Shown here: piece by piece, positions 30,945 through 55,083 of the stretch
How the letters are laid out: every line of letters starts with the position of its first letter
Numbering within the stretch: position 1 is the first letter of the stretch
Virus record (IMG/VR): IMGVR_UViG_3300037760_000114
Coordinates: 40,085-104,084 of that record
From: a virus
Length of the DNA: 64,000 nucleotides
Reading direction: 5' to 3' (one strand)
The notes under the pieces: generated by a model
Told to the model about the DNA's origin: nothing
What the model saw: the letters and a program-made list of their open reading frames with translations, nothing else
Database searches by the model: none
Program-made: the position numbers and the translations under genes

Positions 30945-31454
30945 TCAAGGTCCGACCTCCTCAAATGGAATTACCAACCCGTCGTCGGTCAGGTACGACA
31001 GCACTCCCCGGTACACCACCGGCTCCTGGGTAGGGATCTGGTGCCGCTCCAGCCGCAGCCCGAGATCCTTCGACTCGTCGTCCCGGGCGTGGGTCCAGTC
31101 GTGGCAGGTGCGGCAGGCGTACAGCAGGTTGGACAGGCGGTCGTTCTCGACCTTCGCCTCACCGAACCGGCCACCCGCACCCACGCCGATCCGGTGCGCC
31201 GGGTCGGTTGCCTGCCCGCTGCACCCGTTGAGGGTCATCTCGCACCAGCCGCCGCTGCGGGCCACCAGCGCGGCCCGTACGTCGGCGGGTACAGCCGGCC
31301 GGTAGCGGGTGGTCAGCGACGGCTTGACCGGCTTTCCGGCTGCTTCGGCGGCCTCCCGCCGCTTGCGGCCGACCTGCGCCAGGCCGGTCTTGCGCTCCAG
31401 CGGCTTGGACGCCTGCAACGGCTTGCCGCGCGCCAGCGGAGTCCTACGCAGCAT
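30945..31454 (-). CDS. HNH-like endonuclease
   Basis: RSGGWCE...C...ATDPAHR...SNLLYACRTCHDWTH. Confidence 0.7.
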   Translation of the reverse strand: MLRRTPLARGKPLQASKPLERKTGLAQVGRKRREAAEAAGKPVKPSLTTRYRPAVPADVRAALVARSGGWCEMTLNGCSGQATDPAHRIGVGAGGRFGEAKVENDRLSNLLYACRTCHDWTHARDDESKDLGLRLERHQIPTQEPVVYRGVLSYLTDDGLVIPFEEVGP

Positions 31455-31964
31455 CGTCGGCCCCGTCCTCGTCGGGTACCGGCGGAAGGTGCAGGGCGGC
31501 GGCCACGTTCGCCAGCACCGTCTCTGCAGCCTCCGCCAGCACCGGCTTCGCCCCGTCGGTGGCGCGCATCTGTAGCGCCAGCGGCTCCCCACCCGCCTTG
31601 ACCGCAAGCCCAGGGATTACGGTGCCTTCGGCGTCGAGCACCTGCTCCCCATCCACCCGGGCCGCCTGGACGGTGGCTGTCTGGAACGCGGGCCGCACCT
31701 GGACAACGGTCTCCACCTCGCCCGGATGGGTGGCCTGCACCCACTTCGCGAACGCCTCCGGATCGGCGACATGCACCGTCTCGTGGGAGACGGGCAGCCA
31801 CACCGACGCCAGGTCAGGCAGCCGCCACGTTGGGGCGGTGCCCTGCTCCTCAAACTCGGCGCGTGCGTCGGCTGCCAGCCGCGCCTTCCACTGCGCGGCG
31901 CGGGCGTAGGCGCGTTTCGCGGCGGCCTCCCAGATCAACGCCTGCCGTACCTGATCCGCCCGGT

Positions 31965-33011
31965 TCATGCCGCCACCGCCTCAGGCGACACAGGCCGCTC
32001 CTGCGGGGGGTTGTGCAGCGTTACCTTCCTTGCCCGGATCGCATTGGCGAGCCTGTCCGCCTCCGCCTGCGTGATCTCGCCCTTCTCCAGGGCCGGGGCT
32101 ATCCCGTTCCAAACCGTCCTGAGCCCGGCCTCGTCCGGGGCTTCCTCGACCCCCACGGTCAGCACCACGTACATCTGCGACTCGGGAGCCTCTTGTCCGG
32201 CGATCATCGGCACGACTTCCCGCGTACCGCCGGTGGCCGCGTCCCAGCCGTACCGTTCGAAGATCAGCCACTCCAGGCTGAACCGGGGCACCGTCTGCTC
32301 ACGGTCCACACCCGGCTGGATGCCGCCGCTCACCGCCCGCAGCTTGATCAGCCGGGGGTTACCGTCGCGGGTGAGCCGCACCCAGATCGGCATCGAGGTC
32401 GGCAGCGACTTCTGGCCGGCAACCTTCCAGGTCTTCTTCTTCGACGGCTGCCCGTTCTCGAAGAGCGTGACCTCCTCACCGCGCGACAGCAGGACAACGA
32501 TGCCCTTCGACGTGAGGAAGAGACTCATCAGCTTGCGCCACCGCGCGGTGGCGTCGTTCCAGTAGTTGCTGGTGATGTCGATCTCTGCGTTGGGGTCTTC
32601 AGCTAGCAGCTGCTTGTTCTTCTTGCTCGAACGGGCACGGTTGTCGGCCCACTCGCTGAGCATTTCCCAAACCGCCCCGATCTGGTCCACGACCAGCACC
32701 GGCGGCAACTCGCCCGCATCGGAGGCGCGGAACGTCTCGTCGCGGAAGTCGCGGCATGCGCCGTAGAGGGCGTGCCAGTCCCACACCTCATGCGCGTTGG
32801 CGGGCTGCACGATCTCATAGCGGACGTTCGGGATGGCCCCGTACTGGTCGGCGGTGGACTCGTCGCCCAGCTCGATCCAGTACGTGCGGCCGACCTTCGG
32901 CGACGCGGACAGCTCCGCCGCGGTCCAGCTGCGACCGGAGCCGGTCTCGCCTTCCAGCAGCACCACCGGTGGTGGCACCTTGCCCGTTGGCTGCCTAGTT
33001 CGTAGCGTCAT
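31965..33011 (-). CDS. AAA-family (Sak4-like) ATPase/recombination protein
   Basis: LLEGETGSGRS P-loop (Arg in place of Lys), Walker B LVVDQ. Confidence 0.7.
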   Translation of the reverse strand: MTLRTRQPTGKVPPPVVLLEGETGSGRSWTAAELSASPKVGRTYWIELGDESTADQYGAIPNVRYEIVQPANAHEVWDWHALYGACRDFRDETFRASDAGELPPVLVVDQIGAVWEMLSEWADNRARSSKKNKQLLAEDPNAEIDITSNYWNDATARWRKLMSLFLTSKGIVVLLSRGEEVTLFENGQPSKKKTWKVAGQKSLPTSMPIWVRLTRDGNPRLIKLRAVSGGIQPGVDREQTVPRFSLEWLIFERYGWDAATGGTREVVPMIAGQEAPESQMYVVLTVGVEEAPDEAGLRTVWNGIAPALEKGEITQAEADRLANAIRARKVTLHNPPQERPVSPEAVAA

Positions 33012-39811: not shown

Positions 39812-42310
39812 TCACGCCACCGCCGCGAGGTCGAACAACGTTGGCATCGCCAGCTCAGCCTCGGCGGCCTGGAGATACTTAACCCCGTCGAGGAAGTAGC
39901 CCGGGTTCAACTCCACAGACCGCCCCTGCCGACCCAGCTTCAGTGCCCGAACCGGCACCGTGAACAGCCCGCCGAACGGGTCGTAAACCAGGTCTCCCTC
40001 GTTGCTGTACCGGCGGATCAGCCGGTCCACAATGTCGAACTGCAACGGACATACATGCATCGCCTGCGCCCGGCGTGACTGCTCCGTGTTGAGGGTCAGC
40101 ATCCGGTTGATGTCGTGCCACACGTCGGGGTGATGCGATCCCGGAGCGAGTGCCATGAACGTGGCCGGCAGCGCCCCACGACCCTCCAAGGCCTCGCCGA
40201 TGCGGACGTGCGCCTCGTAGTCGTAGACCTGCCGCAAGGTCTGCTCGGTGAACAGCCGGGACATCTGGTCGTGTGGCAGCGTGGCCAACTCTTCCGGTGT
40301 CAGGTGTCGCTCACCCGAGGAGCGCCAGAAGGCGTGCGCGTCGACCTGCCACCGAGAGCGGGTGTACTCCTGCTTCGACTTCGCCACCGGCACATCGGCG
40401 TAGCCCTTGGTCCGATCGGTCTGCGGCTTGTGGAACAGCAGGATGTACTCGGGTGAGCCGGCGCCCATCTTGGTTGCGTCCTTGCACTGCTCCGACCAGC
40501 CCAGCCGATACGTCTGGTTGTTCTCCCTAACCACATCGGTAACGACCGTGATCATGCCCATGTAGTCGAAGCCGTGCTTACGACTATGGGCGATCGCCTC
40601 CGCGTGGAACGGCGATACCGTAGGCACTCCAGCGCCGGTCACGTTGCCGAACAGGATGCGGTCCTTGACGTGGCAGCAGTAGATGCGCCCCGGTCGTAGC
40701 ACCCGCAGCAGCTCGGGCGTCAGATAGTCCATCTGAGTCCAGAAGTGCTGGTTGTCGTCGGTGTGCCCGAAGTCCTCGTACTGCGGGGTGTACTCGTAGT
40801 GGTTGGCGAACGGGATCGACGTGACGATCAAGTCGACCGATTCGCTGTCCATCGCCTGCGTCTCAATCACGCAGTCGTTGTTGGCGACCAGCCACCCCGC
40901 GCCGGACGCTTCGATGCGCTCCACGCCGATCGAGCGGGTCAGCGCCTCGGTGATGCCCCGCTGATCAAGCCCGTACTCACGGATGACCTCGGTCATCTTC
41001 GTCGTCAACTCCTCATGCTGTGCCCACTTGCGGCGCAGGGTCCGCACCACTTCCCGCTCGGACTCGGCGTGGATGATGTCGATGCGCACCCGCTCCGTCT
41101 GTAGAAACCTGTGGATGCGGTGGACGGCCTGTACGAAGTCGTTGAACGAGTACGTGACCCCGACGAAGATCGCCCGGTGGCAGTGCCGTTGGAAGTTGCA
41201 GCCGGACCCGGACAGCTCGGGCTTGGTGGCCAGCAGGCGACTTTCTCCGTCAGAGAAGTCGATGATCCGCTGCTCTCGGAGGTCAAGGTCCAGCGAGCCG
41301 TACACCTCAACCGCTTCCGGCAAAGCGCGCTTGATCGCGCGGCGCTCATCCTCCAGGTCGTGCCACAGGATGAAGTGGTCACCTGGTGAGGCGTTGACGA
41401 TCTCGGCCGCCTTCGCGACCCGCGCGTCCAACGTGCTCCGCTTCTCCCGCGCCGCGTCGATCACGCCCAGAGCGGCGCCCCGGAACAGGTGGCCCTGACC
41501 GTCGCGGTCCACCGGTGATTCTGAGTGGTCCACCGGGATCTCGTGGTAGATCACCTCGATCTCCGGCAGGTCATAGCCTGTGTCGTCGTACCCGAGGTCG
41601 GAGGGCTTCTGTAGGAACACCGCCCAGGTGTTCAGCCACAGCCAGAACTCCCGTTCCTTATGCGGGTACAGGGTCAGGTGATTGGCCTTCGTGGAGTCGC
41701 GCTGGAAGAACCGCGTCAAGGCTTGTCCGGTGTCCATCACGCCCAGGTAGCCGGCGTAGTGGATCAGCTCCTTGTGCCGGTTCGGCGACGGGGTTGCGGT
41801 GGCCACGAAGCGGTACTTCACCGCGTCGAACAGCGTCAGGAACGTCTGGTAGGTCTTCGATCCGAACGACCGCAGCACCGACGCCTCGTCGAGGCTCACG
41901 GCGTCGAACAGTGCCGGGTCCAGCCGGCCGTCCCGCACCGACTCGTAGTTGGTCAGGTAGATGCCCGGCCCGTCAACGTCACGGTCCCACCGAACGAACG
42001 TCACCTGCGTGCCGAGCATCCCGGCATCACGGGCGAACTCCTGCCGCACCCCCAACGGGCACACGATCAGGGCCTTGCCGCCGATCCGCGCCAGAATCAG
42101 GCGCATGATCTCCAGTTGAATCACCGATTTGCCGAGACCGAACGCGGCAAAGACTGCCCGCCGGCCGCCCCGGATCGCCCATTGGACAATGGCACGCTGG
42201 TGCGGCTTGAGGATCGGGTGAACGTCACCAGCCGCCACGGCGAAGCCGAACGTCTGGCTGAAGTCGACCTTGGCAGCCAGGAACTCGGCGTAGCTGGTGG
42301 TGACGCTCAT
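39812..42310 (-). CDS. SNF2-like helicase fused to an amino-DNA methyltransferase (beta class)
   Basis: GLGKS, LDEAS, TATPSPN, SGCNFQ, QAVHRIHRF; then VTSIPF (motif IV) and DPFGG (motif I). Confidence 0.88.
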   Translation of the reverse strand: MSVTTSYAEFLAAKVDFSQTFGFAVAAGDVHPILKPHQRAIVQWAIRGGRRAVFAAFGLGKSVIQLEIMRLILARIGGKALIVCPLGVRQEFARDAGMLGTQVTFVRWDRDVDGPGIYLTNYESVRDGRLDPALFDAVSLDEASVLRSFGSKTYQTFLTLFDAVKYRFVATATPSPNRHKELIHYAGYLGVMDTGQALTRFFQRDSTKANHLTLYPHKEREFWLWLNTWAVFLQKPSDLGYDDTGYDLPEIEVIYHEIPVDHSESPVDRDGQGHLFRGAALGVIDAAREKRSTLDARVAKAAEIVNASPGDHFILWHDLEDERRAIKRALPEAVEVYGSLDLDLREQRIIDFSDGESRLLATKPELSGSGCNFQRHCHRAIFVGVTYSFNDFVQAVHRIHRFLQTERVRIDIIHAESEREVVRTLRRKWAQHEELTTKMTEVIREYGLDQRGITEALTRSIGVERIEASGAGWLVANNDCVIETQAMDSESVDLIVTSIPFANHYEYTPQYEDFGHTDDNQHFWTQMDYLTPELLRVLRPGRIYCCHVKDRILFGNVTGAGVPTVSPFHAEAIAHSRKHGFDYMGMITVVTDVVRENNQTYRLGWSEQCKDATKMGAGSPEYILLFHKPQTDRTKGYADVPVAKSKQEYTRSRWQVDAHAFWRSSGERHLTPEELATLPHDQMSRLFTEQTLRQVYDYEAHVRIGEALEGRGALPATFMALAPGSHHPDVWHDINRMLTLNTEQSRRAQAMHVCPLQFDIVDRLIRRYSNEGDLVYDPFGGLFTVPVRALKLGRQGRSVELNPGYFLDGVKYLQAAEAELAMPTLFDLAAVA

Positions 42311-44391: not shown

Positions 44392-44973
44392 TCATGCCGA
44401 CTCGACATCCCGATCGTCATCCGCTGCGGCCTGGGGGCCTTCCAGCCGGTCAAGCCGTTCCTGGATCTGCTGGTCCGACTTGAGCAGGTCTTCGATCAGG
44501 CTTTCGGTCCGGTCGAGGCGCCGGGCTGAGTCCTGTACCGCCGAGTGGATGCCGGACAGGATCATCAGCTGCCCCTCGTGGAGGGTCCGCTGAGCCTGGG
44601 TCAGTTCGTCGAGGCGGGCATGCCGCAGCAGTTCGATGCCGCGCTTGAGGTAGGACTGCGCGCGGTCCTTCTTCTGCAACGACACGGGCAGGTGCTCCTC
44701 GGAGTGGATGACCCGGTAGCCCACGTTTTCGACCACTCCGAGGTACCGCCGGTGCTCCCGCAGCAGGGTGGTGTTCGCTGCCCCGACGGCCCGGTACACC
44801 CGGTCGCGAGCTACCGGAGTGTCGAGCCCTTCCTCCAGGGCTTCGATCAGCTCCTTGTAGGTGAAGGTCATGCCGGGTTCGGCGTCGTGGGTCAAGTCGT
44901 AGACGACCCGCCGGTCGCTGCGCCCGTCGTCACGCGACGGCTGAAACGGTGAGCCCGTAAGCGTCTTACTCAT
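44392..44973 (-). CDS. Hypothetical wHTH plus coiled-coil protein directly downstream of the pentamer array
   Basis: 193 aa; TFTYKELIEAL...NVGYRVI wing-like segment and heptad-rich C-terminus. Confidence 0.6.
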   Translation of the reverse strand: MSKTLTGSPFQPSRDDGRSDRRVVYDLTHDAEPGMTFTYKELIEALEEGLDTPVARDRVYRAVGAANTTLLREHRRYLGVVENVGYRVIHSEEHLPVSLQKKDRAQSYLKRGIELLRHARLDELTQAQRTLHEGQLMILSGIHSAVQDSARRLDRTESLIEDLLKSDQQIQERLDRLEGPQAAADDDRDVESA

Positions 44974-44990
44974 CGCTGCCCCCTAGTTGT

Positions 44991-45524
44991 GTTCCATGCC
45001 TTGCCGTGCCACGCCCATCCCGGCCGTGCCATGCCGTACCGGGCCGGGCCACGCCGAACCTTGCCGCGCCTCGCCGGGCCATGCCTGGCCGTGCGTGCGG
45101 TGGCCGGGAGTCGAACCCGGCCTACGACCATCACCGCGACCTTCCTTGCCATGCCCGGCCCTGCCTTGCCGATCCTGACCCCGCCGCTCCATGCCCTGCC
45201 CGGCCGCGCCGCGCCATGCCGCGTGCGTGGGCGCCCCGGACTCGAACCGGGGTGTATGCCATCCGCCCATCCCCTGCATCGCCTTTCCTTGCCATGACTG
45301 GCCTATCCTTGGACTGCCCTGCCCGGCCGGACCTTGCCGAGCCTCGCCCCGCCGGGCCGCACCCGGCCGCGCGCGAGCGCTGGGGGAGTCGGACCCCCAG
45401 TACGACCATCCGCTCTGCCATTCCTCTAACTCCTTGCCTCGCCCCGCCGGGCCGCGCCAACGCCTATCCGCGCCGGGCCGCGCCGGGCCGCGCCGTACCC
45501 AGACATACCGCGCCCGGCCACGCC
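44991..45524 (-). repeat. Downstream GG(C/T/A)-NN pentamer array: 4 tracts separated by 3 tRNA-like minihelices; probable ncRNA
   Basis: Tracts 44991-45090 (20 units), 45141-45220 (16), 45279-45368 (18), 45429-45524 (~19); separators 45091-45137, 45221-45269, 45369-45415. Confidence 0.9.
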
Positions 45525-45537
45525 CTGAACGTCCATG

Positions 45538-46104
45538 TCAGACGATCCGCACCGAGAACCGGCCGTAACCGTTGGTCCGGTTATCCCCCAGCCCTTCCGC
45601 CTTCCCCGCCAACTCGGCCACCCGCTGCAAGTCGCTGCGGTCCATGACGCTTTCCAGCAGAATCGCGTCTGCCACCAACGCCCAACGGGGGAACTTCGGA
45701 CGGACCCGCATAGTCCGCTTTCCGCTGATGCCAACGGCTGCCCGGTCGTGGAACTCGACCCGCTTGAACAGCTCCTGCGGGTCCTCCGGGCCTTCGTACG
45801 ACAGCGGTACGTTCATCTCGGTGAACTGCAACGCCCGGGTGACCTGCGTACCCTGCTTGCTGATCTTCCCGGCCTGGATGATGCACTTCCGCACGTTCGC
45901 GGTCGGCATGACGATCCGGCTGTCCTCCACGTACAGGCCGCCGAACCACTCCAGCCGCTCAATCGCCCGCCGGTCGTCCTCGGTCTTCTTCCGCTTGCTG
46001 GTGTAGGTCTGGATCTCCCGAACGATCGGGTTATCCGGATCGGCCAGCGAGATGTTGTGGCAGAGCAGTGGGCTAGTGCCCGTCAGCTCCAACTTGATAT
46101 CCAT
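45538..46104 (-). CDS. Stand-alone Cas7/RAMP-like (RRM-fold) protein
   Basis: 188 aa with a strong RBS (AGGAGG); N-terminal strand IKLELTGTSPLL, MPTANVRKCI helix, C-terminal glycine loop GLGDNRTNGYGRFSV. Confidence 0.72.
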   Translation of the reverse strand: MDIKLELTGTSPLLCHNISLADPDNPIVREIQTYTSKRKKTEDDRRAIERLEWFGGLYVEDSRIVMPTANVRKCIIQAGKISKQGTQVTRALQFTEMNVPLSYEGPEDPQELFKRVEFHDRAAVGISGKRTMRVRPKFPRWALVADAILLESVMDRSDLQRVAELAGKAEGLGDNRTNGYGRFSVRIV

Positions 46105-46150
46105 CCGGTTCCTCCTATGTTCTGGGGCTGCCTGCCCCTGTCTGTTGTGG

Positions 46151-46574
46151 AAGCCCAGCCCTGTCAAGCCATGCCGGGTCCGTGAGCGCCGGGGAGTCGA
46201 ACCCCGGTAGATGACCATCCGCTCGCCTGCTGCCCTTGCCTTGCCTTGCCGGTCCCCGCCTGTCCATGCCGCGCCGGACCTCGCCTATCCTTGCCGCGCG
46301 TGGGCGTCGCGGCCTCGAACCGCGATGGCTGCCAGCCGCCCGCCAACTCCCTGCCGTGCCTTGCCCTTCCGGGCCGGGGACTGCCAAGCCGAGCCGCGCC
46401 CAGCCGAGCCACTGCCCTGCTGTGCCGAGCCAATTCCAGCCGTGCGTGGGCGTCCGGGACTCGAACCCGGATGTTTGCCACCCGCCCGCCACCCCTGCCA
46501 ATCCCTGCCGAGCCGCGCCGATCCACGCCGTGCCCGTCCCGGCCGCGCCCAGCCGCGCCGTGGCCTGCCCAGCC
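46151..46574 (-). repeat. Upstream GG(C/T/A)-NN pentamer array: 4 tracts separated by 3 tRNA-like minihelices; probable ncRNA
   Basis: Tracts 46151-46175 (~5), 46236-46295 (12), 46346-46441 (~19), 46495-46574 (16); separators 46181-46224, 46296-46341, 46442-46487. Confidence 0.9.
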
Positions 46575-46577
46575 ATG

Positions 46578-46832
46578 TCATGCAGCCCTTCGCGCGCGGG
46601 CCGCAGCCGACTTGATCGCCAACCGAGAGAAGTAGGCCCGCTTCCGGGCATCCGCCATCAGCCGGGCGGTCTTGTCGTCCAAGTCGGGGTGCTCCGCCCG
46701 GACCTCCCGTAGCCAGCGGTCCTCGGCGGCCTTACGGGCGGCCTCGGTCGCGGCTGCCCGATCGATGGTCCTGCCCCACTTGACGAGGGCACCGAGGCGG
46801 CCGGCAGAGGCGTACCGGTTCGGGGTGCTCAT
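46578..46832 (-). CDS. Small basic hypothetical protein
   Basis: 84 aa, coupled to cro by an ATGA overlap. Confidence 0.6.
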   Translation of the reverse strand: MSTPNRYASAGRLGALVKWGRTIDRAAATEAARKAAEDRWLREVRAEHPDLDDKTARLMADARKRAYFSRLAIKSAAARARRAA

Positions 46833-51024: not shown

Positions 51025-51148
51025 GGCAGTGCTCCTTCGGTCGTCTGCCAAGAGTCGCTGGTCTGAGTGTCGATCTCAGCGAGCCCGGGGTTATGAGTCC
51101 CGGGTGGGCACCGGCCCACCAGCGTGGTCCACACAGTGGATGGCATCG

Positions 51149-51219
51149 AGATCGCGGCCGGACTCGAACCGGCGTCTACCGCTTTGCAGGCGGTCCCCTG
51201 ACCACTCGGGCACGCGATC
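51149..51219 (-). tRNA. tRNA-Cys(GCA)
   Basis: Cloverleaf read by hand. Confidence 0.88.
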
Positions 51220-51224
51220 TTGTG

Positions 51225-51297
51225 TGTCCCCGGCTGGGTTCGAACCAGCGACCTCGGCCTTCGGAGGGCCGCGCGCTTCCGGCTGCGCCACGAGGAC
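51225..51297 (-). tRNA. tRNA-Arg(CCG)
   Basis: Cloverleaf read by hand. Confidence 0.88.
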
Positions 51298-51298
51298 A

Positions 51299-51385
51299 TG
51301 GTGCGGGTAGAGAGATTCGAACTCCCTGAGCGCATGCGCACCGGGGTTACAGCCCGGCTCACCTCACCATCGGTGACGTACCCGC
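51299..51385 (-). tRNA. tRNA-Tyr(GTA)
   Basis: Long variable arm; encoded CCA. Confidence 0.85.
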
Positions 51386-51386
51386 T

Positions 51387-51460
51387 TGGGGTGACTGGCC
51401 GGAGTTGAACCGGCATGTCCAGGGCCACAACCTGGCGCTCTACCATTGAGCTACAGCCAC
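51387..51460 (-). tRNA. tRNA-His(GTG)
   Basis: Cloverleaf; encoded CCA. Confidence 0.88.
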
Positions 51461-51462
51461 AG

Positions 51463-51534
51463 TGCCCGGTGGAGGTGTCGAACCTCCGGCCTTCTGCTTG
51501 TAAGGCAGACGCTCTCCCGTTGAGCTAACCGGGC
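51463..51534 (-). tRNA. tRNA-Val(TAC)
   Basis: Cloverleaf read by hand. Confidence 0.88.
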
Positions 51535-51539
51535 ATGGG

Positions 51540-51613
51540 TGCGCCGCCTGGGGATCGAACCCAGCGCGGCCAGTTGATAAGACTGGTCTCACCGACCAGG
51601 TGAGCTGCGGCGC
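51540..51613 (-). tRNA. tRNA-Ile(TAT)
   Basis: Anticodon arm CCAGT-CTTATCA-ACTGG. Confidence 0.72.
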
Positions 51614-51616
51614 ATC

Positions 51617-51700
51617 TGGCGGAGGGGGCGGGATTCGAACCCGCGAGGGTGTGACCCCTACGCCGCTTCCAACGGCGTTCCCGTGACCGCCGGCCCCTCC
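51617..51700 (-). tRNA. tRNA-Ser(GGA)
   Basis: Long variable arm; CCA. Confidence 0.82.
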
Positions 51701-51701
51701 A

Positions 51702-51775
51702 TGGCTCTCCCGGCTGGACTCGAACCAACATCGGCGGAGTAACAATCCGCTGTCCTACCATTGAACGACGGGAGA
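51702..51775 (-). tRNA. tRNA-Asn(GTT)
   Basis: Cloverleaf; CCA. Confidence 0.88.
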
Positions 51776-51779
51776 TCGG

Positions 51780-51853
51780 TAGCGCCGACGGGGCTCGAAC
51801 CCGCACCGTCTGGATTGAAAGTCCAGGGACCTGACCGATTAGTCTACGGCGCC
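51780..51853 (-). tRNA. tRNA-Glu(TTC)
   Basis: Cloverleaf read by hand. Confidence 0.88.
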
Positions 51854-51858
51854 TTGCG

Positions 51859-51932
51859 TGTTCCGACCTGGGTTCGAACCAGGGGCCTCCACCGTGTCGA
51901 GGTGGTGCTCTACCGGGCTGAGCTACCGGAAC
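51859..51932 (-). tRNA. tRNA-Val(GAC)
   Basis: Cloverleaf read by hand. Confidence 0.85.
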
Positions 51933-51933
51933 G

Positions 51934-52007
51934 TAGCGGGTGCCGGAATCGAACCGACCTGTCTCGGGTTATGAGCCCGTTGAGCACAACCAGTGCTCCT
52001 ACCCGCA
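51934..52007 (-). tRNA. tRNA-Met(CAT), initiator-like
   Basis: Three G-C pairs at the base of the anticodon stem; unpaired 1:72. Confidence 0.8.
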
Positions 52008-52008
52008 G

Positions 52009-52080
52009 TGCGCCGCCGAGGAATCGAACCCCGGACACTCCGCTTAAAAGGCGGCAGCTCTACCACTGAGCTAGCGGCGC
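52009..52080 (-). tRNA. tRNA-Lys(TTT)
   Basis: Cloverleaf read by hand. Confidence 0.88.
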
Positions 52081-52085
52081 ATGAG

Positions 52086-52244
52086 CGGCGGTGGAGTAGG
52101 CGTGTGGCGACGCCTCGTTCTTAAGCCGCAGACCAAGCGCCGTTCTCCGCCTCGCCTTCTTAGGGGCGACACATCACCCAGCTCCGGTCCTGCCAGCACG
52201 TTTAGGAGACCTGCCCTGGTACCCGGTTGCGGCCTCCACCGCCG
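52086..52244 (-). ncRNA. Unidentified ~160-nt structured RNA within the tRNA array
   Basis: 11-bp terminal stem CGGCGGTGGAG/CTCCACCGCCG; inner GCCGCA/TGCGGC helix and hairpins. Confidence 0.55.
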
Positions 52245-52246
52245 AG

Positions 52247-52318
52247 CCTCCCGCCCCCGATTCGAACGGGGACACCCGCTGTAGGAGAGCGGTGCTCTGT
52301 CCGTTGAGCTAGCGGGAG
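52247..52318 (-). tRNA. tRNA-Arg(CCT)
   Basis: Cloverleaf read by hand. Confidence 0.85.
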
Positions 52319-52319
52319 A

Positions 52320-52392
52320 TGGTGCGGCGCCCGAGAGTTGAACTCGGCCCGCTGGCCTTAGAAGGGCCGGCTGCGCATCCGGCGCGCGCCGC
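52320..52392 (-). tRNA. tRNA-Arg(TCT), short D arm
   Basis: Loop CTTCTAA; CCA. Confidence 0.75.
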
Positions 52393-52395
52393 ATG

Positions 52396-52469
52396 TGGTA
52401 CGCCGTGAAGGAATCGAACCTTCGTCCTCGGGGTAAGAGCCCGGAGCTAAACCACTCAGCTAACGGCGC
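52396..52469 (-). tRNA. tRNA-Lys(CTT)
   Basis: Cloverleaf; CCA. Confidence 0.85.
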
Positions 52470-52470
52470 G

Positions 52471-52554
52471 TGGAGGAGGGTAAGGGAGTCGAACTCTCGG
52501 GTGTCACCCCGGCACGGTTTTCGGGACCGCTTTGCCACCATGGCGCTACCCTCC
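52471..52554 (-). tRNA. tRNA-Ser(CGA)
   Basis: Long variable arm; CCA. Confidence 0.8.
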
Positions 52555-52559
52555 ATGAG

Positions 52560-52633
52560 TCGGGTGCGGGCGATTTGAACGCCCGGCCTCCGCGTCCCGA
52601 ACGCGGCGCTCCACCTAGCTGAGCTAGCACCCG
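52560..52633 (-). tRNA. tRNA-Pro(CGG)
   Basis: Cloverleaf read by hand. Confidence 0.88.
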
Positions 52634-52638
52634 TTGCG

Positions 52639-52712
52639 TACCCCCGACAGGACTCGAACCTGCCGCCTCCTGGTTCGTAGCCAGGTGCTCTATCCAGATG
52701 AGCTACGGGGGC
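52639..52712 (-). tRNA. tRNA-Arg(ACG)
   Basis: Cloverleaf read by hand. Confidence 0.9.
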
Positions 52713-52713
52713 A

Positions 52714-52789
52714 TGGTGGGCCACCCAGGAGTTGAACCTGGCGATGCCGACATATCAGATCGGTCTCGTCACCGGCTGAGTCGTGACCC
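52714..52789 (-). tRNA. tRNA-Ile(GAT)
   Basis: Cloverleaf; CCA. Confidence 0.8.
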
Positions 52790-52790
52790 G

Positions 52791-52872
52791 TGGTGGACCA
52801 TCCCGGAGTCGAACCGGGTTCCGCTGCCGTACCGTCATGCGGTCTTCGGCAGCGTCGAAACCTTCATGGCCC
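52791..52872 (-). ncRNA. Mini-tmRNA-like RNA (tRNA-like domain only)
   Basis: G3-U70 pair, A73, CCA; no D stem but GGTTTCGAC; helix GCTGCCG/CGGCAGC; T-arm TTCGACT. Confidence 0.7.
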
Positions 52873-52876
52873 TCGG

Positions 52877-52961
52877 CGGACAGTGAGGGATTCGAACCCC
52901 CGGTGGTTTCCCACTCCGCGCTAGCAACGCGGCGCCTTAAGCCGGGCTCGGCCAACTGTCC
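52877..52961 (-). tRNA. tRNA-Ser(GCT)
   Basis: Long variable arm. Confidence 0.87.
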
Positions 52962-53063
52962 TTGGGCGTTCGGCCTCTCCTACGACCCCCAACGGGATCG
53001 CGCACCCACATGGGGCTGCGATTGCAGCGCCTATCCCATAGCCGAACTAGTGGGTCCCTAGCG

Positions 53064-53137
53064 CGCCTCGTACGGGACTCGAACCCGTGCATCTCCTCCT
53101 TGACAGGGAGGCGTCCACTCCACTGGACCGACGAGGC
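53064..53137 (-). tRNA. tRNA-Asp(GTC)
   Basis: Cloverleaf read by hand. Confidence 0.88.
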
Positions 53138-53142
53138 ATACG

Positions 53143-53216
53143 TACCCGGGACACGATTCGAACGTGCACTGTGCTGGTTCTAAGCCAGCCGCCTCCTGCC
53201 GTTGGGCTACCCGGGC
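53143..53216 (-). tRNA. tRNA-Leu(TAG), short variable region
   Basis: Loop CTTAGAA. Confidence 0.82.
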
Positions 53217-53217
53217 A

Positions 53218-53293
53218 TGGTGGAGAAGAGCGGACTCGAACCGCTTGCCTCCGCTTTGCAAGAGCGGCGCTCTACCTGATGAGCTACATCCCC
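53218..53293 (-). tRNA. tRNA-Ala(TGC)
   Basis: G3-U70; CCA. Confidence 0.88.
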
Positions 53294-53294
53294 G

Positions 53295-53370
53295 TGGAGC
53301 CGGTGACGCGGATCGAACGCGCTCCCTCCTGCGTACGAAGCAGGCGCACTACCTTCAGTGCTTCACCGGC
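53295..53370 (-). tRNA. tRNA-Thr(CGT)
   Basis: Cloverleaf; CCA. Confidence 0.85.
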
Positions 53371-53371
53371 A

Positions 53372-53505
53372 GGGTAGGCCGCCCGGACTTGAACCGGGCA
53401 TCTCCCGCTGCCCGCCCTCTGGCGGGACTCGCCCGGTGCTCCATCGGGTTCCCTAGGCTCCGATGGTCTTAGGCGGCAGGCGACTTGCCGTTAGTCGATT
53501 GGCCC
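53372..53505 (-). ncRNA. tRNA-like RNA with a large structured insertion replacing the anticodon loop
   Basis: D arm CGACTAACGGCAAGTCG; T arm CCCGG-TTCAAGT-CCGGG; insert contains a CCATCGG/CCGATGG hairpin. Confidence 0.6.
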
Positions 53506-53510
53506 ACGTA

Positions 53511-53579
53511 AGCCGGCGGCGCGAGTCGAACGCGCGGCTGCCGCCTTACAAGGGCGGTGCACCACCGTGGCTCGCCGGC
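53511..53579 (-). tRNA. tRNA-Thr(TGT)
   Basis: Cloverleaf with a short D arm. Confidence 0.8.
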
Positions 53580-53583
53580 ATCG

Positions 53584-53656
53584 CTGGGAGCCCAGGATTC
53601 GAACCTGAACCGACGGTTTCAGAGACCGCCGTGCTGCCGGATTACACCAGCTCCCA
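53584..53656 (-). tRNA. tRNA-Gln(CTG)
   Basis: Cloverleaf read by hand. Confidence 0.87.
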
Positions 53657-53691
53657 ATGACCCGGCCGGGCCTAGTCATCCCGGCCGGGGT

Positions 53692-54144
53692 TCAGCGCGA
53701 GGTCACCGACGCCCACGACGGGGCAGCCGGCCTGACCCGCAGCACCATGCCCGCCTCGGCGGGGGTGCGGTCACCCTTGCGCTGGTTGCACGGCCCGCAC
53801 GCGGCGACCGTGTTGCGCCAGGTGTTCCGGCCGCCGCGGGCACGCGGGACGATGTGGTCAACGGTGCTGGCCGTGGCCGGGCAGTAGCCGCAGCGGCGCT
53901 GGTCGCGGGCGAGCACACCAGTCCGGGACCAGGCGGGGCCGGCGGTGTACCGCCACTTCGTGACCACGTAGTTGACCAGCCGCAGCACCCTCGGCACAGG
54001 CCAGACTCCGATGATCCGGTCCGGTTCACCTTCGTGGACCACTGCGACCTGCCGGACGAGCATCCGGATCGCGTGCCGGAAGGACACCCGGTGCAGCGGG
54101 CCAAGATCAGCGTTCAAGACGAGTACGGCGTCCACCGGGTTCAC
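53692..54144 (-). CDS. HNH endonuclease embedded in the tRNA array
   Basis: VLVLNA...VLARDQRRCGYC...TVDHIVPRARGGRNTWRNTVAACGPCNQRKG. Confidence 0.92.
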   Translation of the reverse strand: MNPVDAVLVLNADLGPLHRVSFRHAIRMLVRQVAVVHEGEPDRIIGVWPVPRVLRLVNYVVTKWRYTAGPAWSRTGVLARDQRRCGYCPATASTVDHIVPRARGGRNTWRNTVAACGPCNQRKGDRTPAEAGMVLRVRPAAPSWASVTSR

Positions 54145-54163
54145 CTCCTGTCGTGGTGGGCGC

Positions 54164-54237
54164 TGGAGCGGCTACGGGGAATCGAACCCCGGTCTGCTGC
54201 ATGGCAAGCAGCCGCACTGCCGTTGTGCTACAGCCGC
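54164..54237 (-). tRNA. tRNA-Gly(GCC)
   Basis: Cloverleaf; CCA. Confidence 0.88.
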
Positions 54238-54242
54238 ATGAG

Positions 54243-54316
54243 AGCCATCGGCGCGATTCGAACGCGCGGCCTTCCGCTTACCGGGCGGACGCTCTAACCA
54301 CCTGAGCTACGACGGC
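54243..54316 (-). tRNA. tRNA-Thr(GGT)
   Basis: Cloverleaf read by hand. Confidence 0.87.
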
Positions 54317-54317
54317 G

Positions 54318-54394
54318 TGGTACTCCGGGTGCGATTCGAACGCACACTGTGCGCGGTTTGAACGCGCCGCCTCCTGCCGTTGGGCTACCGGAGC
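54318..54394 (-). tRNA. tRNA-Leu(CAA), short variable region
   Basis: Loop TTCAAAC; CCA. Confidence 0.82.
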
Positions 54395-54399
54395 ACGAG

Positions 54400-54470
54400 C
54401 TGAGGGCGGAGGATTCGAACCCCCACAGCTGGGACCAAAACCCAGCGACCTGCCGTTAGTCGAGCCCTCA
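54400..54470 (-). tRNA. tRNA-Gln(TTG)
   Basis: Cloverleaf read by hand. Confidence 0.85.
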
Positions 54471-54475
54471 ACGAG

Positions 54476-54547
54476 AGCGAGCGGCGGGAGTCGAACCCGC
54501 TACGTCTGTTTGGAAGACAGAAGTGTCACCACCAACACCTCGCTCGC
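54476..54547 (-). tRNA. tRNA-Gly(TCC)
   Basis: Cloverleaf read by hand. Confidence 0.85.
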
Positions 54548-54552
54548 ATGAG

Positions 54553-54626
54553 TAGGCCGTACGGGGCTCGAACCCGTAACCTCTGCGCTGAGAACGCAGT
54601 GAGCTGCCAGCTTGCTCCAACGGCCC
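54553..54626 (-). tRNA. tRNA-Glu(CTC)
   Basis: Cloverleaf read by hand. Confidence 0.85.
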
Positions 54627-54692
54627 AAGGGCGCCGGGCAGGGTGTGTACCCCTGCGCTGTCCGGACACTGCATCAGCACTTCCGGCGCCAG

Positions 54693-54765
54693 TGCTCGTG
54701 GCCGGGATCGAACCGGCGGCCTCCGGGACTTCACGCCGGCGCTCAACCTGCTGAGCTTCACGAGC
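54693..54765 (-). tRNA. tRNA-Phe(GAA), atypical anticodon arm
   Basis: Loop GTGAAGT; 31:39 mismatch. Confidence 0.7.
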
Positions 54766-54766
54766 A

Positions 54767-54841
54767 TGGTGGACCACAAGGGGATCGAACCCTTCACAGA
54801 GTGTCTGCCAGACGCTCCCGCACACCAGTGACGTGCGGCCC
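54767..54841 (-). tRNA. tRNA-Ala(GGC)
   Basis: G3-U70; CCA; weak D stem. Confidence 0.75.
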
Positions 54842-54846
54842 ATGAG

Positions 54847-54919
54847 TCGGGAACCGGGGAGTCGAACCCCGCACTTCCTGCTCCCAAGGCAGGCCCGGTC
54901 ACCGCGCCGGTCGCCCCCG
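54847..54919 (-). tRNA. tRNA-Pro(TGG)
   Basis: Cloverleaf read by hand. Confidence 0.8.
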
Positions 54920-55008
54920 ATGCCCCGGCGCGACGATGCGCGCCGGGTCTCATGCCATCCACTGTGCAGATATCAACTTCCGATCCCACCGGCCGTAGCC
55001 GGGAGAAG

Positions 55009-55083
55009 CAGGGGCGACAGGATTCGAACCTGCGGCTTGCGGGTTTGGAGTCCGCTGCTCTGACCGTGCTGAGCTACACCCCT
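55009..55083 (-). tRNA. tRNA-Trp(CCA)
   Basis: Cloverleaf read by hand; first gene of the array. Confidence 0.9.

Follow-up and report, generated by a model that had tools for sequence, protein, structure and literature searches.

tRNA-like minihelices between the guide tracts of a phage VIPR locus, proposed as cutting sites for host RNase P and RNase Z

Viral Interference Programmable Repeat (VIPR) was described in 2026 in bioRxiv preprints as a phage-encoded, RNA-guided silencer (10.64898/2026.04.26.720920, 10.64898/2026.04.26.720927, 10.64898/2026.10.15.759431). Its ancestral RAMP protein, Vipr, polymerizes on guide RNAs (vrRNAs) of 9 to 16 YNNGG repeats with a structured 3' tail, and DNA is silenced by the complex where it agrees with the NN dinucleotides, each unit leaving one base unread. 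For the release of the guides from VIPR arrays, only 'staggered' arrays and hammerhead separators have been reported so far, the latter being ribozymes between the vrRNAs of VIPR types I and V (fig. S19 of 10.64898/2026.04.26.720920). Here we analysed a stretch of 64,000 nucleotides (nt), the window, from the virus record IMGVR_UViG_3300037760_000114 (positions 40,085 to 104,084 of that record). Its minus strand carries, at 44974-46580, eight tracts of GG(C/T/A)NN pentamers, mostly GGCNN, in which GG recurs at intervals of 5 nt, and between them six hairpins of 40 to 42 nt. We find that these hairpins are minihelices that mimic the upper half of a tRNA and that their RNA structure is under selection, and we propose that the host's RNase P and RNase Z cut the array at these sites.

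The locus around the six minihelices can be identified as a phage VIPR system, that is, a CRISPR-like, RNA-guided silencer. In its middle lies a gene for a protein of 188 amino acids (aa), flanked by pentamer tracts on both sides and on the same strand. A profile of 22 sequences, made from this protein and 21 homologues from viral contigs, finds as the only solved structure PDB 36pp chain D, 'SUSP1 Vipr protein' (E = 3.5e-61). The protein also matches phrog_4652 (E = 1e-43), and by tblastn the homologue in coliphage SUSP1 is 32% identical across 99% of the window protein. The AlphaFold model of the window Vipr has a pLDDT of 94. The motif KRKKTEDD (residues 37-44) is invariant in the 22 homologues, which are otherwise 29 to 49% identical to the window protein, with one close relative at 81%. 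The open reading frame (ORF) of 193 aa that follows the array is probably the Vipr accessory gene (vap): an ORF placed likewise behind the array is 34% identical in Gordonia phage Trine (E = 2e-8) and in the locus L003 (E = 8e-6). It gave nothing in a PDB sequence search and nothing in Pfam. With published VIPR the locus shares the Vipr homologue, GGY/NN tracts of about 13 to 20 units on both sides of vipr, a downstream accessory gene and a phage as host. It differs in what follows the tracts, which is a tRNA-like minihelix here and a pseudoknot tail in the SUSP1 clade. The word tRNA is absent from the text of the three preprints, and a further paper that mentions VIPR does not contain 'tRNA-like'. 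A CRISPR repeat-spacer array with Cas6, which would have direct repeats of 25 to 40 nt, was ruled out by the period of 5 nt. The sole Cas6-like signal at the locus is a weak match to the G-loop region of Vipr (E = 0.028).

To look for targets, the NN dinucleotides of the tracts were compared with DNA under the published skip of 1 nt per unit. The first ten units of tract T8, the last of the array (Table 1), have a single exact match in IMG/VR. Over the full tract, 35 of the 40 guide positions match L286:7912-7970 in the provirus IMGVR_UViG_2772190774_000001; in units 1 to 17 the match is 33 of 34, to a gene for a 708-aa protein of the FtsK/SpoIIIE family. All skipped bases fall on the wobble position of its codons, in frame; the locus has this in common with published VIPR, and so too the skip of 1 nt itself. 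At least one tract is a guide, and because of this match we take the tracts to be real guides. The first-pass annotation of this DNA had read the arrays as guides of an RNA-guided system that works without Cas6; the identity of Vipr and the T8 target bear this out, and the system turns out to have been published already, as VIPR, which has no Cas6. The last three units of T8 (GGCAA GGCAT GGAAC) are unmatched in the target. They resemble a purine-rich motif, GGCA(A/T)GGA(A/G), seen at the 3' end of the other tracts and in Trine.

The other tracts that were searched gave no convincing target. The provirus that carries the T8 target has no match to the other window tracts, and a comparison of all tracts with 2.4 Mb of collected loci and with the phage's own genome gave nothing above controls with shuffled unit order. 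Scans of the collection with T7 (two windows), T6 and T3 found no target. With T1 there were six metagenome matches, in three unrelated cellular gene contexts and with differing codon phase, and we treat them as chance, with one possible exception. This is L295:1899-1945, a 15-unit match at 29 of 30 positions that stops 2 nt short of minihelix 6. It falls inside a gene for a Crp/Fnr-like regulator and is not wobble-phased, and the five other matches of the same pattern look like chance.

All six minihelices have one layout. An outer stem of 5 or 6 base pairs (bp) encloses a linker of 10 to 12 nt with the motif G-N-T-G-G and an inner stem of 6 or 7 bp, which closes a loop of 7 nt. The loop reads TTCGA(C/G)(T/G), with TCCGACT as the one deviation. 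Behind the outer stem comes an unpaired A, replaced by G in a single minihelix, and then C-G. On the minus strand, at 45097-46487, the DNA agrees in every letter with the six sequences quoted in the first-pass annotation. That annotation gave 45091 as the start of the series, which takes in the 3' flank ACGCAC of minihelix 1 (45097-45137). Stems that differ while their pairing is kept had been taken there as a sign of selection on RNA structure, and a covariance model had been suggested. We built one from three window copies and six relatives. In the complete phage genome of 104,084 bp it finds these six sites and no others (E from 1e-13 to 8e-5), and in the first 46 sources searched it finds 21. 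The minihelix belongs to a large family of phage RNAs.

Variation within this family bears out the claim of selection on structure. When 91 family copies are aligned, standard pairs fill 97.1% of the stem cells, compared with 69.7% in shuffles; double changes number 282 compared with 67; and the covariation score is 0.686, compared with 0.16 when shuffled and no more than 0.13 after sliding of the partner. Because the alignment was fitted to the model and includes paralogues, its figures overstate independence; the variety of pair types, with compensatory types in 10 of the 11 stem pairs, is unaffected by this. Only 4 stem cells are unpaired, and about 21 hold G-U. This places the fold on the RNA of the sense strand, because a G-U pair read from the opposite strand turns into a mismatch. 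In all six window copies the minihelix is the minimum-energy or centroid fold; the folding energies themselves are not significant in this GC-rich DNA (z from -1.2 to -2.0). We conclude from these patterns that selection acts on the RNA structure of the minihelix. Since the window holds an array of 33 tRNA genes and an integrase, one could suspect that the six elements are functionless: decayed tRNA fragments, att sites or chance hairpins. However, all six inner stems are different and all are fully paired, the family shows massive compensatory variation, and the constant architecture is not a repeatable product of tRNA deletion. Moreover, the copies lie on one strand and at boundaries in at least 172 loci (counted below), with E values down to 1e-13. 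As far as sequence analysis shows, the covariation excludes such relics and chance hairpins, and we give them a negligible probability.

Rfam has no family that matches the locus at gathering score. At E up to 10 the only match is mascRNA-menRNA (RF01684), which is the best, insignificant, match to three of the six copies (17.4 to 18.6 bits compared with a gathering score of 42.5). Ribozymes, hammerheads included, were not found by Rfam in the window at gathering score, nor in the locus at E up to 10. Canonical tRNA genes were considered and rejected: neither ARAGORN nor the tRNA model of Rfam reports any of the six, and both do detect the tRNA array of the window (34 calls by ARAGORN and 26 by Rfam). 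The 10 to 12 nt between outer stem and T stem leave no room for D and anticodon arms.

What the sequences describe is a mimic of the upper half of a tRNA, with acceptor and T arms and the elbow formed by GG and T loop, as had been noticed in the six copies. Among the 91 aligned copies, T54, C56 and A58 of the T loop are present in all, and T55 and R57 in nearly all. The two G's of the linker are kept in 86 and 91 copies, G at position +1 in 88, and the discriminator is A in 79 and G in 9. The stacked pairs number 11 to 13 in 315 of 324 copies, compared with 12 bp in the acceptor and T stack of a tRNA, and are split into 5-6 plus 6-7. A further feature goes beyond the first-pass annotation: one linker base shows Watson-Crick covariation with the last base of the T loop (AU 50, GC 11, CG 10 and UA 1 in the 91 copies), and the linker base after it is paired with position 59 of the loop. 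Covariation and pairing together suggest that the linker docks on the T loop by two base pairs, much as a D loop does. In the alignment this concerns columns 18-19 with 37-38, of which minihelix 6 (46448-46487) is an example in the window: in linkers of the form GGCAG-N-CA, N pairs with the last loop base and the following C with G59 of the loop. Copies with the linker GGTCGTAG have a loop ending in CT.

The 3' flank is also constant. C74 is present in 91 of 91 copies, position 75 is G, T or A and never C, and the flank after the minihelix reads ACG or ACT. The 33 tRNA genes of the phage have C74 in 31 cases and encode the full CCA in 9. Among the 24 without CCA, C74 is found in 22 and the next base is mostly T or G, so that minihelices and CCA-less tRNA genes of the same phage have a 3' flank signature in common. 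Neighbouring genes of the tRNA array (51148-55083, minus strand) are often just 1 to 4 nt apart. With so few genes encoding CCA and such tight spacing, the phage tRNAs must owe their 3' ends to endonucleolytic trimming and to the attachment of CCA by the host. ARAGORN also calls a 94-nt tRNA-Arg(acg) at 41888-41981 (minus strand), inside an ORF for an 869-aa DNA methylase; it is without Rfam support and is probably a false call.

The features of the locus are given in Table 1. With T for tract, M for minihelix and V for vipr, their order is T-M-T-M-T-M-(short T)-V-T-M-T-M-T-M-T. The eight tracts have 5 to 20 units each (9 to 16 in published VIPR), and a minihelix follows six of them, T4 and T8 being the two without.

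Table 1. Features of the VIPR locus, in the 5' to 3' order of the minus strand (positions in the window)
Feature	Position	Strand	Description
Guide tract T1	46488..46577	-	about 17 GGYNN units; GG spacing 5 nt; directly after the stop codon of an 84-aa ORF; ends 2 nt before minihelix 6
Minihelix 6	46448..46487	-	GGGCG / GGTGGCAAACA / TCCGGG / TTCGAGT / CCCGGA / CGCCC, then ACGCAC; 68.5 bits, E 3e-13
Guide tract T2	46342..46447	-	about 17 units, one 6-nt slip
Minihelix 5	46302..46341	-	linker GCTGGCAGCCA, occurring together with loop TTCGAGG; 67.8 bits
Guide tract T3	46225..46301	-	about 13 units
Minihelix 4	46184..46224	-	12-nt linker GATGGTCATCTA; 49.2 bits
Short tract (T4), vipr leader and ribosome-binding site AGGAGG	46105..46183	-	about 5 units
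vipr gene	45538..46104	-	188-aa RAMP-family RNA-binding protein
Guide tract T5	45416..45537	-	about 19 units, directly after the vipr stop codon
Minihelix 3	45375..45415	-	7-bp inner stem, loop TCCGACT, discriminator G; 30.7 bits, E 2.5e-4
Guide tract T6	45270..45374	-	about 18 units
Minihelix 2	45228..45269	-	outer stem 6 bp, inner stem 6 bp; 67.3 bits
Guide tract T7	45138..45227	-	about 16 units
Minihelix 1	45097..45137	-	12 stacked bp; 32.4 bits, E 1e-4
Guide tract T8	44974..45096	-	20 units; no minihelix downstream; natural target found
193-aa ORF, probable vap	44392..44973	-	directly after the array; phrog_5926 match

We propose the following course of events. The locus most likely gives one long transcript; a scan for promoters and terminators inside the locus found no minus-strand site, which is weak evidence for this; actinobacterial promoters are poorly covered by the scan. 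In this RNA the outer stem takes the part of the acceptor stem, stacked on a T arm with a canonical T loop, and the linker takes the place of the D and anticodon arms; its GG and last bases would dock on the T loop. Cuts by two host enzymes would follow, by RNase P immediately 5' of each minihelix and by RNase Z directly behind its unpaired discriminator. In this way the tracts would be freed as vrRNAs, to be loaded with Vipr, and would be separated from the vipr and vap messages. According to PMC7479834, RNase Z contacts only the T arm and acceptor stem, is blocked by trailers beginning with CC and, in most of its forms, requires that the 5' end be mature. Cutting by RNase Z thus implies that RNase P has cut before, which favours excision of the full minihelix. 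Cutting devices between guides are already known, from the published VIPR arrays with hammerheads at the same position.

We consider it moderately probable that host RNase P and RNase Z do cut the array into single guides at the minihelices. Of the readings weighed here this one is the best supported, as it fits the stack of 11 to 13 bp, the G at +1, the purine discriminator, C74 without C75, the placement at boundaries and the copies outside VIPR. Several points weigh against it. The outer stem mostly has 5 or 6 bp and not the 7 bp of a tRNA, and a 7-bp stem has been called a major determinant for RNase P (PMC4201824). The 3' flank is ACG or ACT and not RCCA, which leaves one RNase P contact half present, and RNase Z may be slowed by the lone C behind the discriminator. 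At -1 the minihelices mostly have A and the phage tRNAs mostly T. The four sequencing runs listed for the locus are all of DNA, one of them probably from the source sample. Finally, the structured 3' tail of published vrRNAs is about 40 nt long (VIPR preprints); the minihelix has the same size and position and might stay on the guide.

IMG/VR was scanned with two patterns and the matches were passed through a structural filter. Among the matches listed in these two scans, the family has at least 349 copies in at least 172 viral loci, with a GC content of 0.37 to 0.70. In nearly every listed locus all copies lie on one strand, where the length of a gene often separates them; as many as 12 are found in one locus. 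Only some 55 of the 349 listed copies are next to tracts. In 24 VIPR loci from diverse Vipr clades (GC 0.38 to 0.72), tracts and minihelices alternate around vipr, and the copies sit strictly between tracts or between tracts and genes. A Vipr gene is also present in 21 of 22 further loci with a minihelix next to a tract. No published description of the family in phages was found; a catalogue of 10,006 candidate viral RNAs from 2023 may contain it unnamed (PMC10690425).

Cultured phages are among the carriers. Gordonia phage Trine has the order vipr-M-T-M-T-M-vap, and Gordonia phage MakoManhole has the same tract-minihelix design. This is also true of Mycobacterium phage LittleE, which has an extra small GC hairpin between each tract and its minihelix. 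A different setting is found in Mycobacterium phage Oaker (KF986247, 37924-44242), with 8 copies in the gaps between genes 40 to 54; the two stretches of this phage that were checked contain neither tracts nor a Vipr match. The Oaker copies start 5 to 58 nt after a stop codon and open a cassette in which the minihelix is followed by ACGA or GCGA, a hairpin (stem of 6 to 8 bp, at most 4 nt away), a conserved leader resembling GAACGGACA and a start codon, which comes 41 to 49 nt after the minihelix. A hairpin at the new 5' end is what would be expected for the protection of a freshly cut message.

Some records of cultured phages deserve a note on annotation. In Trine (MH271318), gene 40 (record 31440-32243) is annotated as an 804-nt 'hypothetical protein' that spans two tracts and three minihelices of the array; the true ORF, a vap-like gene, probably starts after the third minihelix (168 aa). 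The VIPR locus of LittleE (NC_042322) lies around gene 34, between tail genes, and both gene 34, which is vipr, and gene 33 are annotated as hypothetical. The Mycobacterium phages Mattes and Donkeykong (cluster F / Cheoctovirus) have uninterrupted GGCNN tracts of 50 to 70 units and no minihelices. Directly downstream of these tracts is a 'hypothetical protein' gene (gene 52 in Mattes), which is a distant Vipr homologue (about 22% identity, E = 2e-7). Long tracts of this type are unannotated in some records and are called 'hypothetical protein' in others. In 20 VIPR loci without minihelices there was no Rfam match, which means that these loci have no hammerheads.

The placement of the copies bears on an explanation in which the minihelix stays on the guide. 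It would then be the structured 3' tail of the vrRNA, a counterpart of the SUSP1 pseudoknot that caps or nucleates the Vipr filament, and neighbouring guides would be parted by at most one cut, at its 3' end. The published vrRNA is indeed a repeat tract with an invariable structured tail, and this tail caps the filament and is treated as needed for complex formation. In the window nearly all minihelices begin 2 to 12 nt after a tract and are about 40 nt long, and several loci have the order vipr-T-M-T-M, with one minihelix per tract. In Oaker, too, a minihelix that stayed on the RNA would leave the message before it with a stable 3' end. However, the minihelix is common in phages without Vipr or tracts, and in Trine and in the locus L240 a minihelix follows an ORF and not a tract. 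Terminal tracts without a minihelix are frequent. One of them is T8, and as this tract has a convincing target, a minihelix is not obligatory for a guide. In LittleE, the separate small hairpin between tract and minihelix also speaks against a tail function of the latter. Lastly, an RNase P cut that precedes the RNase Z cut would detach the minihelix from the guide (PMC7479834). On this evidence we regard a retained 3' tail as unlikely.

It is also conceivable that the minihelix acts without being cut, as an RNA stabilizer, a site of transcription pausing, or a decoy or sponge for factors that act on acceptor ends of tRNAs, and that its position in VIPR loci is incidental. Candidate host factors for a decoy are CCA-modifying toxins, the CCA-adding enzyme and elongation factors. 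That the family is widespread with many copies outside VIPR would agree with this, the strict tRNA-like features would suit a decoy too, and the phage invests heavily in the supply and repair of tRNA, with 33 tRNAs and RtcB. On the other hand, the strict alternation with tracts in 24 loci and the position right after stop codons speak for a function at boundaries. If it were a decoy, there would be no need of a copy at each of them, and a decoy for enzymes of the acceptor end must itself be cut out first. Unlike an intrinsic terminator, the stem has no T run after it. Taken together, we find a role without cutting quite improbable.

Cutting by RNase P and RNase Z may extend beyond VIPR loci. 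The minihelix could be a general punctuation mark of phage transcripts, a half-tRNA of about 40 nt that hands the long RNAs of many unrelated phages (GC 0.37 to 0.72) to the host's RNase P and RNase Z. This is a serious possibility, although we would stop just short of calling it probable. If it is true, the minihelix marks cuts between ordinary genes as well as between VIPR guides and is a phage counterpart of the tRNA punctuation of mitochondria. It would also be a natural forerunner of engineered tRNA-gRNA arrays. The wider family, which Rfam lacks and which has copies between ordinary phage genes, suggests that phages may often cut their messages at tRNA-like marks.

VIPR itself is known, but a VIPR array separated by tRNA mimics, and the wider class of boundary RNAs in phages, are apparently undescribed. 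If the proposed cutting takes place, a tRNA-shaped separator is a third route to single guides, beside hammerheads and 'staggered' arrays. It would borrow essential enzymes that the host cannot easily switch off, and genome engineers use a tRNA-gRNA design of which it would be the natural version. Because phages in culture carry the element (LittleE and Oaker on Mycobacterium smegmatis, Trine and MakoManhole on Gordonia), the idea is directly testable.

Among the closest known systems are the VIPR arrays with hammerheads, which also have a cutting device between neighbouring guide tracts. Those devices cut themselves, whereas the minihelix, which shows no features of a ribozyme, would need enzymes of the host. 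Related in shape are minihelices of acceptor stem and T stem-loop, which are said to have been used as model substrates of RNase P by McClain, Guerrier-Takada and Altman in 1987. With these substrates, and with the parts of a tRNA that are contacted in the RNase Z-tRNA structure cited in PMC7479834, the phage element has in common a coaxial stack of about 12 bp, the T loop, an unpaired discriminator and the lack of D and anticodon arms. Compared with the model minihelices, it is natural, it has a linker of 10 to 12 nt that would dock on the T loop, its pairs are split 5-6 plus 6-7 instead of 7 plus 5, and it lacks CCA.

Natural RNAs that are released in this manner are found in eukaryotes. The mascRNA and menRNA of MALAT1 and MEN-beta are tRNA-like elements in long non-coding transcripts and are cut by RNase P and RNase Z, and a related example is provided by the miRNAs of murid herpesvirus 68, which are linked to tRNAs. 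As with mascRNA-menRNA (RF01684), a tRNA-like cut in the phage would define the ends of neighbouring RNAs. The eukaryotic elements are cloverleaf-like, and the window copies, which score below the gathering threshold, are not members of that family. In bacteria, YrlA of M. smegmatis, a Y RNA of bacteria and mycobacteriophages, is cut by RNase P and receives CCA (PMC4201824). It too is a tRNA mimic of actinobacteria and their phages. It differs in having mimics of both D arm and T arm and a Ro-binding stem, and in lying next to rsr; the minihelices have no such context and no Rfam match.

A parallel in design is found in transcripts in which whole tRNAs serve as spacers. Xie, Minkenberg and Yang reportedly engineered polycistronic tRNA-gRNA arrays for CRISPR multiplexing in 2015. 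Mitochondrial transcripts are a second example: under the tRNA punctuation model, the RNAs between their tRNAs are freed by RNase P and RNase Z. In both cases tRNA-shaped spacers are processed by the cell's own RNase P and RNase Z, as we propose for the VIPR locus. The difference is that those spacers are whole tRNAs, whereas here a natural array encoded by a phage would achieve the same with half a tRNA of 40 nt.

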